A stretch of DNA of 64,000 nt. Origin: Candidatus Poribacteria bacterium. Its GTDB lineage: Bacteria; Poribacteria; WGA-4E; PCPOR2b. The stretch spans positions 4,000,001 through 4,064,000 of the forward strand of contig OZ220744.1 of NCBI GenBank assembly GCA_965116925.1, in the 5' to 3' direction. A program made the position numbers. The first letter of the stretch is position 1; each line of letters begins with the position of its first letter. Shown here one piece after another: positions 33,001-42,000 of this stretch.

Positions 33001-36000
33001 ATTGGTCGCCAAACGGAAATTGGATTGCATTCTCCTCTCTCCGTGACGGTAATTGGGAAATCTACGTGATGGACGCTGATGGTGCTAACCCGATTAACAT
33101 CACCAATCACCCAGCGAAAGATGGTAGACCGGATTGGTCTCCGGACGGGAAGCAGATTGCATTTACTTCTGACCGCGATGGCAACTTAGAAATCTATGTG
33201 ATGAAGGCTGATGGAACTAACCCGATTAACCTTACCAACAACCCAGCAGAAGACAATCATTCCTCTTGGTCACCGGACGGAACGCGGCTGGCTTTCGACT
33301 CTAACCGGGACGATCCATTCGGGGACATCTATGTGATGAACGCTGATGGGACGAATCCCAGTAATCTCACCCAAGATCCTGATAATTTTGACCTTTATCC
33401 CTCATGGGGACCTGACCCTATCTTAAGTGTTGCTTCAAACGAGAAATTGGCGACCTTATGGGGCAAGGTCAAGCGCGGCAATACTTATGGAGTACGGTAA
33501 AATTTGTGAGCTACTTTGCAGATAGATAAAGAAGGAAAACAATGAAACTTATATTGCCGAAACTGTGGCGGTGGATATGCTGCCTTCATATTGGGCTTTT
33601 GGCTCTCGTTGCGTGCCTTCTCTTGGCATCGACAAGTCTCGCACAAACCGCTGACACAAGCATTGTCTTTATCTCCCTCCGCAGTGATGGGAGGAACAGT
33701 GAAATTTACCGGATGAATCCTGATGGGAAACGACTCCGCCGACTCACTGAACAGCCTGGATATGACGGTGCACCTGCCTGGTCGCCTGATGGACAAAAGA
33801 TTGCCTTTATGTCATTTCGGGATGAGCACCGACTTCAGGAACGAGCACCGATCTACGGTGAGATTTATGTGATGAACCCCGATGGCACCAACCCCGTCAA
33901 TTTGACTCAGTCGGTAGAAAGACCGGATTTTGGGTCTTCTTGGTCACCGGACGGAAAGCAGATCGTCTTCACATCAGCCGAGCACTTCAACTGGGGTCCT
34001 GGACTCCGCAAGGATATTTGGGTGATGGATGCTGATGGAGGAAATCCACGGGACCTAACAAATCATGACGCCGAGGACCGGAACCCTGATTGGTCCCCGG
34101 ATGGAATGCAGATTGCATTCGAGTCTAACCGCAATAGAGACTGGGAGTTCGAGATCGAGGTGAGGAACTGGGAAGTTTTTGTGATGAACGCTGACGGAGC
34201 TAACCCCATTAACCTGACCAATAACCTCGCATGGGATAGCAGCCCCGATTGGTCGCCAGACGGGGATCGGATTGCATTTACTTCTAACCGTGACGGGAAC
34301 TCGGAAGTTTACGTGATGAATGCCGATGGCACTAACCCTATCAACCTGACCAATCACCCGGCCACAGATGGTAGCCCCGATTGGTCGCCGGCCGGGAATC
34401 AGATTGCATTCCAATCGGACCGTGATGGCAATTGGGAAATCTATGTGATGGATGCTGACGGTGCAAATCCCATTAACCTGACCAACCATCCCGCATGGGA
34501 CAGCAGTCCCTCATGGGGATCTGTTCGTTCCTTAAACGTCTCTTCAAACGGGAGATTGGTGACCTTATGGGGAAGAATTAAACGCACCCGATAAAACAAT
34601 CTTGAGGACGATGTGAGGGGGCAGTGATCTATCGAATGATATGCACCCGATTTCCGCCTCGGACTGTCTCATCAGGCATCGCAATCGGTGTTTCGATGAG
34701 GGCGATGAACTGTCCGTTTGCGCTGATGGCAATCGTATCGTAGGGGAGCTGCCCCTCCGTGCGATAGGTGTAGAGATACTTAGAGAGGCCACCTCCCGCC
34801 GCGGTGAGATCAAAGACAGAGATACCGTGAAGCTGCTCCTCAACGTTTTGTCCCCGCTTGGATACGCTGATAACGGCATATCGTCCTGTCCCATCAACCT
34901 GCAATCCTTGCGGCATATTTTCCAACGTCCACTGCCACACTTTCTCCCCTGACCACCTATGAGCGAACAGGGTCATCCCATTCGGGTGGGCTGAAGGGGG
35001 ACGTTGCGCGCCTTTCTGCAAATGGTACGGGATAAAGGTGGTGCCGGTCACAAAGAGTGCGAAATCGTTGGTGGCGGCGATTGTTCCGTTGGTGGCGATG
35101 ATAGGGATGCCACTGACTTCGAGCGGTGTCGTGAGGTTCGTATTCCACAGCGGCTTGATTCCCTCCGGTGTCGATGCCGCATTAAAGATAAATGCTCGTC
35201 CGTCATCTGTCGTGACATTGATGAACTTTCCATCGGGTGAGACACTGACCCCGCGCCAGAAGGTCACCTCCTCAAAGTATGGTTTAAGTGGATCAAAGGT
35301 ATACTCCCACGCTGTTTCGCTTGTCTCACCGTCAATGACGTATAACGTGCCGGACTTGAAATCCCCGGTATTCTCACCACCTCTAATATAGCCGAGCAAT
35401 GCGACTGTTTTCGCATCACGGCCATAATCGAACCAACTGATGGTCATCGGAAGGGTCTGGTCGGGGGGCCATTTCCATTTGAGCATTCCTGTTTTTCCAT
35501 CGAAACGGTAGAGTTGCGCTTTTTTTAGACCCACACCCTCCTTTGTCCACGCGTGATTTCCGACCACCAGCAGATCGCCTCCCTCCGTAGTCGAGATTCG
35601 ATAAGGTCCCGGGTATTGTACCCATGCGTACACATCGTCCGGATTCTGTGGGGTTGAGGTGTCGATATCATCCGCCATGCGGTATTTCCATAACAGCGTT
35701 GGCTTTGTCGTCGATAGATCGTAAGCGTAGATGAACCCGTCAGGGGATTGCTCGCCGATGTAGAAATGTTTACCATCTAGACTGAAGGCTGCGTGTTTGG
35801 CGTAACCTTCGGAGATTCGTGTTTTCCAGATTCGATCCCCTGTGAGCGGGTTGATGATTGCCACATGCCCAGCGTTTGTCCCAATCGCGAGTTGTTCACC
35901 ATTGGGGGAAAAAGCGATTGTCGTCGGTGTCGCTGGACGTTGCAGGTTCGCCAGTAGCGACAGCGGTTCCTCCAGTTCGACGGTACGGATACGATAAGGG

Positions 36001-39000: not shown

Positions 39001-42000
39001 GATATTGACCACGCCATCGTGATTTACATTAGCGGTCGCAACTCCTATCGATTGGACCTGTGCAACGGTGACGAGAGATGCTCCGGGGCCAACACCATAA
39101 GTATTGAGCAGCGTCCCATTGGAGTCAACGACATACAATTCGTCCATTCTACCGCCCGTCCAATCCGCTCTTGTTATATACAGGTTATCGTTCTGATCTA
39201 TCGCCCCGACTCCGCCCAAATCTGTGAGTGGGTTGTCGGCATCGTGTGTCCACGCATCGCTGACCAGATCGTACACAAGCAATCCACCGGAGCTAATAAG
39301 GACACGCTTCATGCTGTCAATGGTAGGTCCCCCTGCCCTCCCTTCAAGCTCAATTGTTTTTTCAATTTCATCGGTAACTGCGTCGATGAATATAACCGTT
39401 CCTGGGACGGGACCTTGAGGATTCCATCCACCAATACCCGCTGACACTGCAATCACCCTAGATACACCATCACTCGTGATACTGTTTGTGTTTATTGGCA
39501 TTGGGATGGTTTTTATGACTGTGTCGGTCTCTATATCAATGACTGTGACGTTGCTTGTATCATCATAGCTGACGTTCCAGGTGCCCGGTTCCTTAGCATA
39601 CGCTGAATTAGCGACGTAAGCCCTTCCGTTAAGAATCGTTATGCCATCCGGCATAGGACCGCAGGGGATGCGCTTAACAACGCTTTTTTGGTTCAGATCT
39701 ACCACATGGATCACATCGCTGTATAGACCTGTGACGTACGCTTTGGAGGGAGGGATAAGGATAATCTGCTTGGGAGTGGTATCGGAGTCGATTGGGATGC
39801 TTCCGACATGTGAACGGGTCAACAGATTGATAATTTCGATAGACCCGCCGCGCGGATCAAAAAATGGGTCTGGGTATTGGATGAGAACATACAGGAGATT
39901 CCCTTGAACCTCTAGATCGCTTGGTATGATCTCCCCAAGTGGAATAATCTCATTCTCAACAGCCTGTTTCAGATTAGGCTCATCAAGATCAACAATTGAG
40001 AGTGACGGCAAAATGCCGGCTTCTGGTTTCCGTAAACCGTTTGCAACGATTGCTAGATTTTCGGTTTCTTGGGCGTAAACGCTCAAGGTAGCAAAAATGA
40101 AAATAGTGAGTACAAACGTGAAACTGTGCTTGCGTATATGCATAACTGAATCTTCCTTTCATCAGTGATATAGCGGTGTCAGCTGTAGGTTTTACAACCT
40201 AAAAACAAAAAACCCCAGCTTTCACGCCGAAAGCTGGGGTGTGGTCCGCCATTTGCACCTGTGATGATATGGAAGTATACTCAAGCACGATGAGTCGGCA
40301 AAGAACCCCGTTCACAGCCTTCCCGCGAAAGCTACCATGTGAAATCAGATTCAGGTAGGTCTCCTGACTTACGACAACGCATTGTCCGCCTTCCCATCCC
40401 GAAATGGGACAGTGGCTTCTGGACACGTTTTAACGTCGTTTACAGTGGCGGGGCCGTGGCGGATTCTCACCGCACTTCCCTATTCTCCGGCAATCTCCAT
40501 CAATTGCCGGCACCTGAATCGACAACTATGCAGTTTTGAAATGCTTCTTTGATTCTGTTTGAAGCGATATTAATTATAGCAGATTGTCAAAAAATTGTCA
40601 AAGGGATTTATGAAAAGCCAGGGGCATTTAATGCTCCCGTAGTTCGATCTTCCGGTCAAGGTTACGGCGGGGAGACCATATGCCCCGACTACGGGTTCGG
40701 GTCATTCCGAATCGGTCAAAAAACGACTGAGAAGAGCGTGTTACTCTCTGTTCCCAAGTACAACTTCACGCAGAAGAAATTGTCCATCTCGGTAAATTTT
40801 AACCGTAATGCGGGTATCAGGTGGGAAGCTAGCGACCCGTTTTTTGAATTCAAGGAATGTACGGACAGGTTGCCCTTCAAATTCAACAATAACATCTTGA
40901 TGTTTGATGCCGGACTTCTCAGCGGGGCTTCCTTTTGAAACTTTTGTGACGCGGACACCAACAGCAGTAGTTCGCTCGTGTTCCTGTTCAAGCCAAACCC
41001 CAAGCCAACCGCGAGGAACGCTACCGTATTGAGTCAGTTGTTCGGCGATGTGTTTCACTGTATTAATCGGAATAGCAAAGCCAACCTCGCTTCTCGTCCA
41101 AGTCCGTCCGAAGGGGTTGGTATTCAGCATGGCGGTTTGCTTCTGGAACAATTCTGGAGTCGGCGAATTGAGCCAATGTGATATCTGCTTGAGATACGGA
41201 TCTTCCATCTTTGCCGCAATGACCCCAACAATTTCCCCTGATGTATTAACAACAGCTCCTCCACTGTTCCCTGGATTCACAGAGGCATTGACCTTGATTG
41301 CATCGTAAAATGGCCGATCGGGTAAAATCTCTAAGCCGCTGACCGTTCCAAAAGAGAGGGTTGGAGAATGCCCATAAGAGCTACCGACCGTGATGACCCA
41401 TGATCCCATATCAATCTGATCGGAATCGCCAATTCTTGTCTGAGGGAGGTTGTCGTTCTCAACAGAGAGAACGGCGATATCTGTTAGGGCATCAATACCC
41501 AGTAGTGTTCCCGAGGTGCGTTGTCCATCTGCAAATACAACTTCAATCTCAGTCGCATTTTCAACCACGCCCGCGGTTGTTACGATGTGGCCAGCGGCGT
41601 TAATGATAATGCCGGATCCGATGTTCTCGTAAGAGAGCGCGGTCATCGGATTATCAGTTAATAATGTTCCCGGTGCCCCCGAAATCGTTTGCGGGGTGCC
41701 CTTGCATGTCGCCACAACCTCAACGACAGATGGTTGCACAGATTTTACTATCGCTTGAAATTCACGCTCCATGGATTGCAGCACACTTTCTTCGGCAACC
41801 GCAGACCAGAGACAAGCTGAAAACAGCGCAATAGCGAGAGCAACTGACTTATGATACAGACGAATTGAGCAGAGCTTAATAGGTGCATTGCGTCTCTTAT
41901 TCTGTGTCTGAACTGTTTTATACATTTTACAAGCCTCCCCCTGTAGGAGCTTCTGTGTGTTTAATGGTCCGCAAAATATAGTTCTGTTCTAAACGCTGCG

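Follow-up and report, generated by a model that had tools for sequence, protein, structure and literature searches.

We examined the only cobalamin riboswitch in the genome of the sponge symbiont Candidatus Poribacteria bacterium (assembly GCA_965116925.1) and the genes behind it, which lie in a window of 64,000 nucleotides (contig OZ220744.1, positions 4,000,001 to 4,064,000); coordinates below are window positions unless stated otherwise. The organism is a B12 auxotroph that has kept B12-dependent enzymes, in agreement with a first-pass annotation. CbiC and CobS have no match in the genome and only two TP_methylase genes were found, while a 255-aa corrinoid protein, three B12-binding radical SAM enzymes and one PduO-type adenosyltransferase are present.

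The riboswitch and the genes it precedes

The riboswitch covers the whole RF00174 aptamer with a score well above the gathering score of 31.5 bits (Table 1). It is the single match in the genome (6,471,377 bases on one contig, 99.12% complete) and stands, as first annotated, ahead of three open reading frames on the minus strand, g03390 (425 aa), g03389 (665 aa) and g03388 (576 aa). A hairpin followed by a T-run is placed between the aptamer and the start codon of g03390, and this succession was recovered by a crude script in 58 of 73 related loci. With its full-length model match and the intrinsic terminator in the expression platform, the RNA resembles a cobalamin riboswitch of the transcription-terminating type, and nothing unusual was noted in it by comparison. 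Judged from its sequence, the expression platform is predicted to be able to switch the genes downstream.

Table 1. Features of the riboswitch locus, in window positions
Feature	Position	Strand	Description
Sigma-70-type promoter (predicted by consensus match)	40573..40601	-	TTGACA-17 nt-TATAAT with TG extension; 12/12 consensus positions
Cobalamin riboswitch aptamer, RF00174	40337..40532	-	117.9 bits, E 1.5e-29, model positions 1-189 of 189
Predicted intrinsic terminator of the expression platform	40202..40240	-	13-bp stem with 7 G-C pairs, then T-run; hairpin in minimum-free-energy fold
g03390 (P0001), 425 aa	38866..40143	-	signal peptide, BtuG-type propeller, dockerin
g03390 type I signal peptide	~residues 1-24	-	ends ..VYA|QE; without cysteine anchor
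g03390 BtuG-family 7-bladed propeller	~residues 26-365 (39049-40068)	-	from profile comparison and model
g03390 type I dockerin	~residues 366-425 (38869-39048)	-	Dockerin_1 29.5 bits, cut-off 22.9
Spacer g03390/g03389	38645..38865	-	dispersed short palindromic repeats; pieces recur 59-259 times genome-wide; hairpins seen
g03389 (P0002), 665 aa	36647..38644	-	lipoprotein-type signal, invariant lipobox Cys23
g03389 ectodomain	residues 24-445 (37310-38575)	-	~420 residues
g03389 linker helix and six-helix S-component-fold core	residues 446-665 (36650-37309)	-	from model
Spacer g03389/g03388	36360..36646	-	tandem and dispersed repeats; pieces recur 16-83 times genome-wide
g03388 (P0003), 576 aa	34629..36359	-	signal peptide, small N-terminal beta domain, WD40/PQQ-type propeller

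Upstream the three genes are flanked by an ECF-sigma/anti-sigma/HtrA operon and downstream by convergent PD40 propeller genes; the genes on both flanks are members of other units. The organism has an outer membrane, and the operon encodes nothing for crossing it. The last gene, g03388, matches the Pfam family PQQ_2 (32.7 bits, cut-off 27.6), and is a conserved, exported protein of Ig-plus-propeller type; we propose it as an accessory partner. A search of the literature did not find this operon described.

g03390 is a BtuG-family propeller with a dockerin

Homology of g03390 to the corrinoid-capturing BtuG proteins was assessed against BtuG1 (BT1490), BtuG2 (BT1954) and BtuG3 (BT2095) of Bacteroides thetaiotaomicron, which belong to Pfam DUF5074 (PF16819). 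A profile of 23 g03390 orthologues matched BtuG1 at E 1.3e-15 over one stretch of 227-254 residues, as well as BtuG3 (E 1.2e-10) and BtuG2 (E 6e-10). In hhalign, g03390 aligned with 12 BtuG-family proteins over 400 columns (probability 100, E 6.3e-58); against BtuG2 and BtuG3 themselves, the 12 reached E values of 1e-71 to 2e-75. An earlier failed model of g03390 (pLDDT 40) is explained by alignment depth, since a 114-row alignment gave an AlphaFold model with a pLDDT of 90.4. This model is a seven-bladed beta-propeller with the BtuG structures as its nearest neighbours: among the Foldseek matches listed, all down to rank 16 were BtuG1, 2 or 3 (E 1.8e-18 to 1.6e-14; PDB codes were assigned via two papers), and the next had an E of 8.6e-13. 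The DUF5074 gathering score is not reached by g03390 itself (13.3 bits, cut-off 27.2). Four Poribacteria-type representatives scored 20.2-27.9 bits and, among 56 relatives scanned, 24 matched DUF5074 at E <= 0.001 and 17 were above the cut-off. By orthologue profile, profile-profile alignment and predicted fold, g03390 is thus a true homologue of BtuG, which goes beyond the functional analogue proposed at first.

BtuG-family seven-bladed propellers hold corrinoids on one face. Those corrinoid contacts of BtuG2 that could be mapped, by sequence alignment only, have conserved counterparts in g03390 in some cases (Asn35, Tyr193, Asn218). BtuG2 Tyr196 pairs with Tyr193, which is invariant in the 23-row alignment, Gln219 with Asn218, kept in 90% of rows or more, and the Asn of the Asn-Glu-Gly motif with Asn35; Trp194 and Ser195 pair with the clade-specific Trp189 and Ser192. 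In the same alignment the contact loop Glu55-Gly56-x-Phe58 is not kept. The partial conservation is a point against the import reading proposed below.

The C-terminal type I dockerin of g03390 exceeds the Dockerin_1 cut-off, and the genome contains nine cohesin matches. In 5 of 80 loci, the orthologues of g03390 and g03389 are separated by an extra gene. By Pfam, it encodes a cohesin domain and a sorting domain in L003, L026 and L034; the inserted gene of L016 resembles these by tblastn only, and that of L006 is a fragment at a contig end, comprising the C-terminal sorting part without cohesin. A C-terminal sorting domain is also carried by the g03390 orthologues of one clade and is absent from g03390. 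Going by these domain assignments, the dockerin probably ties g03390 to a cohesin-bearing protein, which is operon-encoded in some relatives.

g03389 combines a large ectodomain with an S-component-like core

No match was found in Pfam or NCBIfam for g03389 as a whole or for its membrane domain, nor among PDB sequences at E <= 1 with a 53-row profile, and no known relative of the ectodomain was found. The suggested likeness to ECF S-components became clear once the membrane domain was folded alone: residues 430-665 gave a pLDDT of 82.7, and in a structural search of 48,161 chains ranks 1-15 were all ECF S-components. The top Foldseek match was YkoE (E 0.039, target TM-score 0.64). According to this model, the core has the six-helix ECF S-component fold. 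Within the protein, conservation is highest in the membrane domain (median identity 62%, ectodomain 44%), whose helices carry many invariant polar residues. Relatives of this fused type of S-component are also present in Negativicutes.

Conservation of the locus and presence of an ECF motor

Among 80 Poribacteria loci with g03389, a relative of g03390 is found in 75 and one of g03388 in 77, and the gene order is kept. An aptamer lies upstream on the same strand in 73 of the 80 by nhmmer, and Rfam agreed for all 11 of these 73 that were scanned; L028 is without a riboswitch despite ample upstream sequence. No ECF-motor gene turned up in those flanks that were annotated among the 80 loci, and no TonB receptor is among the neighbour families annotated there (4 of the 8 largest). 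At the level of genomes, the S-domain gene is present in 113 of 121 sampled across the phylum. It is preceded by a cobalamin riboswitch on the same strand and contig in 109 of the 113, and in 105 of these 109 this riboswitch is the only match of the genome.

The genome contains exactly one EcfT gene (103.5 bits), directly preceded by a gene for a 586-aa ATPase with two ABC domains. This sole ECF motor (fused EcfAA' plus EcfT) is located 3.2 Mb from the operon. The S-component families PF12822, PF02632, PF01891, PF07155 and PF09819 have no match in the genome. EcfT and the S-domain are present together in 113/113 genomes of four families and absent together in 5/5 genomes of two sister families; these are close kin, and the pattern may reflect only one or two evolutionary events. 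It is consistent with use of the genome's ECF motor by g03389.

A proposed route for B12 import and its alternatives

On balance, we think it probable that the three genes make up a single operon, repressed by cobamides, which imports complete B12-type cofactors into a non-producer. The first-pass annotation had described a new B12 scavenging system made of three orphan proteins without Pfam matches. Its scavenging part is supported by the predicted B12 repression, the BtuG-like g03390 and the S-component-like domain of g03389, whereas its reading of g03388 as a corrinoid-capturing propeller finds no support, and 'orphan' remains apt for g03389, which has no family, but not for g03390 (Dockerin_1, BtuG homology) or g03388 (PQQ_2).

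In the proposed mechanism, plentiful B12 would bring about a riboswitch fold that lets the terminator halt transcription, and scarcity of B12 would permit transcription of all three genes. Secreted g03390, dockerin-tethered to a cohesin-bearing protein at the cell surface or in the periplasm, would capture the corrinoid and might hand it to g03389, with the exported propeller g03388 as a possible accessory partner. g03389 is pictured as an inner-membrane lipoprotein whose periplasmic ectodomain is joined by one extra helix to the six-helix core, which would serve as the cobamide-binding part and translocate the ligand across the inner membrane, powered by the sole ECF motor. The direction of transport would be inward, by way of a presumed passage through the outer membrane. 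Only tentatively do we extend this to an ECF-type importer with extracytoplasmic capture in a diderm, in which a dockerin-tethered, BtuB-free BtuG-family propeller would pass the ligand, perhaps via a second propeller, to a receptor domain that forms part of the S-component, with toppling via a shared ECF motor. By the textbook, ECF transporters function without extracytoplasmic binding proteins, and such an importer would depart from this rule.

Against our main reading stand the distance of the motor from the operon, the one or two evolutionary events that may underlie the co-occurrence, and the lack of an outer-membrane step in the operon. g03389 might instead move B12 alone, the ECF motor having another client. 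According to PMC6072759, the S-component-like B12 transporter BtuM probably needs no ECF motor. Transport by g03389 alone is rather unlikely, however, given the single EcfT, the five S-component families without a match and the joint presence and absence of EcfT and g03389; g03389 also shows no sequence similarity to BtuM. Alternatively, the operon could merely capture or concentrate corrinoids, with the g03389 membrane domain as an anchor or sensor and import left to a cluster near genome position 5.39 Mb, comprising a TonB-dependent receptor, a Peripla_BP_2 protein, a FecCD permease and an ATPase. The cluster, named at first as perhaps the real B12 importer, does exist, and a passage of PMC10404256 gives BtuB and BtuFCD as the partners of Bacteroides BtuG. 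Yet every B12-family match in it falls short of the NCBIfam equivalog cut-off (BtuC 261.5 against 334, BtuF 63.4 against 234, TonB-B12 173 against 599.7 bits); BtuC is the best permease match, but heme and siderophore families score alike. In the genome-wide RF00174 search no cobalamin riboswitch preceded the cluster. Moreover, the superior conservation of the g03389 membrane domain and its invariant polar helix residues are more than a mere anchor needs, and we regard this explanation as unlikely.

It is distinctly unlikely that the operon, though regulated by B12, serves another tetrapyrrole, cobalt, another cofactor or an envelope role under B12 scarcity. With CbiC and CobS missing and only two TP_methylase genes, the organism could hardly make use of cobalt or corrin precursors, and g03390 shows strong homology to a family in which the members tested do bind B12. 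In 105 of 113 genomes, moreover, the only cobalamin riboswitch has this operon as its only target, as expected of the one function that a B12 auxotroph must regulate.

Import of complete cobamides by the operon would bear on a wider problem. According to PMC6072759, only some half of the bacteria relying on external B12 are predicted to have the BtuCDF importer. The passage of B12 across the inner membrane in bacteria without BtuCDF is largely open, and the operon is a concrete, testable candidate whose parts are suited to standard expression and assay methods. A B12-catching propeller of Bacteroides would have been put to use in a second phylum, parted from its partner in the outer membrane, and coupled to a vitamin-pump subunit with a large built-in outward-facing domain. 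If this is true, the fused S-component relatives in Negativicutes would point to a widespread, unrecognised inner-membrane B12 route in diderm bacteria. The operon may also be relevant to nutrient exchange in sponge holobionts.

Comparison with known systems

g03390 shares with BtuG the seven-bladed propeller, profile-profile homology and best structural match, and in both cases the gene immediately follows a cobalamin riboswitch and the organism is a B12 auxotroph. BtuG, reported as exclusive to Bacteroidetes in PMC6143338, is described there as a lipoprotein of the cell surface that has a lipobox and export signal and covers the outer-membrane transporter BtuB like a lid. g03390, in contrast, has a type I signal peptide and a C-terminal dockerin in place of a cysteine anchor and does not keep the Glu-Gly-x-Phe contact loop; the genes next to it are not btuB but those of the S-component-like g03389 and the HtrA-type protease operon.

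The known S-component-type B12 transporters are ECF-CbrT of Lactobacillus delbrueckii and BtuM of Thiobacillus denitrificans. g03389 resembles both in its predicted S-component fold and, as proposed, in its substrate B12, and it would share with CbrT the use of a common ECF motor encoded elsewhere. Its best Foldseek match, YkoE (PDB 5EDL), is the S-component of YkoEDC of Bacillus subtilis, whose ATPase YkoD, like the 586-aa ATPase of this genome, has two ABC domains fused in one protein. PF09819, the Pfam family holding YkoE, and PF01891, that of CbiM, have no match in this genome. The seven-helix metal S-components NikM and CbiM likewise have an extra N-terminal helix and an N-terminus outside the cell; their alignments to the g03389 model span the ranges 21-236 and 25-231. 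YkoE, NikM and CbiM differ from g03389 in their substrates, and all three are without a large ectodomain.

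Anatomy of the riboswitch-controlled operon

The first-pass annotation had placed three same-strand genes behind the single cobalamin riboswitch (RF00174) of the genome. Two genome-wide searches returned one match to the cobalamin model, and no second copy, in the single 6.47-Mb contig that makes up the genome (99.12% complete), and the ORFs of g03390, g03389 and g03388 (P0001, P0002 and P0003) follow it in that order, as had been stated. The genes flanking the operon on both sides are members of other units; the downstream neighbours are convergent PD40 propeller genes, and those upstream are listed in the table.

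The long gaps between the three genes (222 and 288 bp) could be taken as a sign of separate transcription units. This reading was rejected: the gaps are dispersed repeats and are short in other clades, and spacers built of units that recur 16-259 times genome-wide do not speak for separate transcription. We conclude that the riboswitch-controlled operon is real. The repeat units of both spacers resemble REP or MITE elements.

Features of the operon, of related loci and of the ECF motor (window coordinates unless a locus or the genome is named)
Feature	Position	Strand	Remarks
ECF sigma factor, zf-HC2 anti-sigma factor, HtrA-type protease with PDZ domain	40741-43227	minus	own operon, immediately 5' of the riboswitch promoter
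Promoter TTGACA-17-TATAAT	40601-40573	minus	perfect match; upstream of the riboswitch
Cobalamin riboswitch aptamer	40337-40532	minus	Rfam, 117.9 bits, all 189 model positions
13-bp G+C-rich hairpin, then T-run	40240-40202	minus	downstream of the riboswitch
Purine-rich ribosome-binding stretch, then ATG	ATG at 40143	minus	3' of hairpin and T-run
P0001/g03390 ORF	38866-40143	minus	425 aa
Intergenic spacers	38645-38865 and 36360-36646		short palindromic or tandem repeat units
P0002/g03389 ORF	36647-38644	minus	665 aa
P0003/g03388 ORF	34629-36359	minus	576 aa
Inserted gene	L003:765-2294; L026:3415-4932; L034:3335-4870		Pfam: N-terminal cohesin and C-terminal FlgD_ig/Por-type sorting domain
Inserted gene	L016, about 3031-4551		tblastn match only
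Inserted gene	L006:13-891		contig-end fragment, sorting domain alone
Sole ECF motor	L089, genome 844000-858000		586-aa double ABC ATPase directly before EcfT

Conservation across Poribacteria

A scan in which each species was represented by one genome gave 80 loci with relatives of g03389 (41-93% identity), nearly all titled Poribacteria and two "uncultured bacterium". A P0001 relative lies upstream in 75 of these and a P0003 relative downstream in 77, with order and strand the same. The former is missing from L006, L009, L031, L047 and L059 and the latter from L024, L028 and L078; several of these absences are at contig ends or behind insertions. With an iterated nhmmer profile the aptamer was matched in 73/80 loci, always upstream and on the same strand, and was not found in L003, L006, L009, L018, L028, L047 and L059. 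Rfam, applied to a diverse sample of 12 loci, confirmed all 11 that were nhmmer-positive; L028 gave no cobalamin riboswitch by either method. In L031 the riboswitch (L031:4380-4577) directly precedes the P0002 gene without a P0001 gene between; in that genome the BtuG-like gene is thus dispensable or has moved.

In a second, independent set of 121 genomes from the phylum, 113 matched the profile of the g03389 membrane domain, all within four families of one order. Of the 113, 109 have a cobalamin riboswitch upstream, with contig and strand the same (median distance 2.9 kb), and in 105 of these 109 it is the sole match of its genome; the four exceptions to an upstream riboswitch comprise fragmented assemblies, one insertion case and a genome with withheld bases. 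G003, G007, G022 and G038, genomes of one genus in the same family, carry another cobalamin riboswitch, at 250-330 kb or about 4 Mb from the operon.

For a fourth operon gene, flanking ORFs were clustered at loci with both g03389 and g03388 orthologues. Representatives of four of the eight largest clusters were a Schlafen/AlbA_2 ATPase, HisI, anthranilate synthase and a laminin-G protein, which we read as local synteny and not as parts of the system.

Relationship of g03390 to BtuG

By profile comparison, g03390 is a homologue of BtuG. A plain phmmer search of g03390 against the PDB sequences matched BtuG2 and BtuG3 entries at E 0.002-0.005, the PDB codes being assigned to BtuG proteins from PMC10404256 and bioRxiv 2024.02.16.580637. 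A profile of 23 orthologues matched BtuG1 over one stretch of 227-254 residues (E 1.3e-15), BtuG3 at 1.2e-10 and BtuG2 at 6e-10. The archaeal YVTN propeller 1l0q outscores the BtuGs with the same profile, but its match is split into three repeat-level stretches. An all-against-library search returned 3,427 relatives of g03390 at E <= 0.001, and 56 of the 150 listed representatives, picked for coverage of the propeller and not of the dockerin alone, were scanned. Pfam DUF5074 was matched in 24 of the 56, above its cut-off in 17. Twelve of these representatives, when aligned, match BtuG2 and BtuG3 over the whole length (E 1e-71 to 2e-75), and DUF5074 is therefore the BtuG family. The two papers found to contain the term DUF5074 are, by title and abstract, unrelated to B12.

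The Poribacteria g03390 alignment matched those twelve representatives with probability 100 and E 6.3e-58 (hhalign). Hence the likeness to BtuG seen in the first-pass annotation is retained, its reading as a functional analogue being replaced by homology. The structure prediction, which had failed before (pLDDT 40), reached pLDDT 90.4 and pTM 0.82 with AlphaFold2 and a 114-row alignment. By sequence alignment, the contact residues of BtuG are conserved only in part: Asn35, Tyr193 and Asn218 of g03390 are kept counterparts, whereas the Glu-Gly-x-Phe loop is not kept.

Location of g03390

Cohesin matches were found at nine places in the genome. As none of them lies in g03389, this protein was rejected as the cohesin carrier for the g03390 dockerin. 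In 5/80 loci the g03390 and g03389 orthologues are separated by a gene of about 505-511 aa (see table), and the orthologue of this cohesin/sorting gene in the own genome lies at 2,554,584-2,556,731. The g03390 orthologue of one clade has both a dockerin and a FlgD_ig/Por-type sorting domain of its own. Together, the cohesin/sorting genes and the dockerin-plus-sorting orthologues suggest that g03390 may be displayed on the cell surface. Against this, Kamke et al. 2014 (PMC3909097) report to have found none of the structural genes of Por secretion in Poribacteria.

A FlgD_ig/Por_Secre_tail-type C-terminal domain of ~100 residues occurs at >70 places in the own genome, and the inserted stretch of L003 also contains an IS4/5 transposase. 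In a clade comprising L019-L025 and L029, the g03390 orthologue has 403 aa and ends, in place of the dockerin, in a short tail that contains the motif ..ATSWGKLK..

Domains of g03389 and g03388

In 53/53 aligned g03389 orthologues the N-terminal hydrophobic stretch ends in a cysteine, and the small residues in front of it resemble a lipobox. For the ectodomain (residues 24-445) there was no Pfam match and no PDB sequence match; its language-model neighbours (0.75-0.77, below the trusted level of the tool) are CARDB and NPCBM_assoc-type beta-sandwiches. Residues 446-665 form seven hydrophobic helices with invariant polar residues inside them, and are the best conserved part of the protein (median 62% identity versus 44% for the ectodomain).

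Folded alone with 59 rows, the membrane domain reached pLDDT 82.7. Its best Foldseek match was the S-component YkoE (E 0.039, target TM-score 0.64), and the further S-components CbiM and NikM were among the weak rows. The fifteen best structural matches of the core among 48,161 chains are all ECF S-components, at Z values which, according to the tool's own warning, are within reach of helical bundles by arrangement alone; we assign the S-component fold to the core because these fifteen are uniform in family and a gap lies below them. The likeness to S-components proposed in the first-pass annotation is thereby strengthened. The first helix stands apart from the six-helix core, an arrangement shared with NikM and CbiM, which in the model fits a placement of the N-terminus, and hence of the ectodomain, on the outer side of the inner membrane.

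A search restricted to shorter proteins gave 32 matches to the membrane domain. These appear to be fragments of g03389-family genes, or such genes with wrongly called starts, and no separate family of small S-components was found. Full-length relatives of 547-624 aa occur in Sporomusa carbonis, Sporomusa acidovorans and Veillonellales (P0314, P0401, P0317 and P0318), with 34-37% identity measured to a distant member of the g03389 family, and a partial relative is labelled Candidatus Methanoperedens. Each of them is annotated as hypothetical and lacks Pfam domains.

The third protein, g03388, is the most uniformly conserved (51-89% identity, many invariant aromatic residues). Its PDB profile search returned generic WD40 proteins only (best E 5.8e-7) and its atlas neighbours (0.80-0.84) were Ig-plus-propeller clusters; profile, Pfam and atlas searches gave nothing beyond generic signals of WD40/PQQ-type propellers and Ig-like domains, and no link to B12.

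ECF motor and requirement for B12

The genome has one EcfT gene and no match to the five S-component families searched (PF12822, BioY, CbiM, riboflavin type and PF09819). In L089, a B12-binding radical SAM gene with DUF4070 stands directly before the motor, and a sigma-54 response regulator follows it. In the phylum sample, EcfT is present in 113/113 genomes with g03389, nearly always as a single copy; among genomes without g03389 it is absent from 5/5 of two sister families and multiple-copy in three of other classes. As the sampled genomes are kin, few independent events stand behind this co-occurrence.

CbiC and CobS were not found in the genome and there are only two TP_methylase genes. 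The genome does encode a corrinoid protein, three B12-radical SAM enzymes and a PduO-type adenosyltransferase, in agreement with the earlier view of a missing corrin pathway and retained B12-dependent enzymes. The PduO-type gene lies ~1.6 kb downstream of a B12-binding radical SAM gene (genome 1772082-1773506 and 1775123-1775614). Elsewhere in the genome, a TonB-receptor/BtuFCD-like cluster gave only matches that are below curated cut-offs and not B12-specific.

Comparison with known B12 uptake systems

A 2026 review covers BtuH and BtuJ beyond Bacteroidetes and does not mention ECF transporters (PMC13616437; 'ECF' 0 times), and no published description of the operon's architecture was found in literature that leaves aside most subscription journals. 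As the most likely reading of the operon we take a B12 uptake system with a new architecture. We somewhat favour the mechanism proposed for it, in which BtuG-like g03390 would capture B12 and S-component-like g03389 would import it with the single ECF motor; the biochemical steps are predicted. S-component-type B12 transporters are known in CbrT and BtuM (for BtuM, passages of PMC6072759). BtuG is described, in passages of PMC6143338 and PMC10404256, as exclusive to Bacteroidetes and as the partner of BtuB. Unlike BtuG, g03390 adjoins no TonB receptor gene, has a type I signal peptide in place of a lipobox cysteine and carries a C-terminal dockerin.
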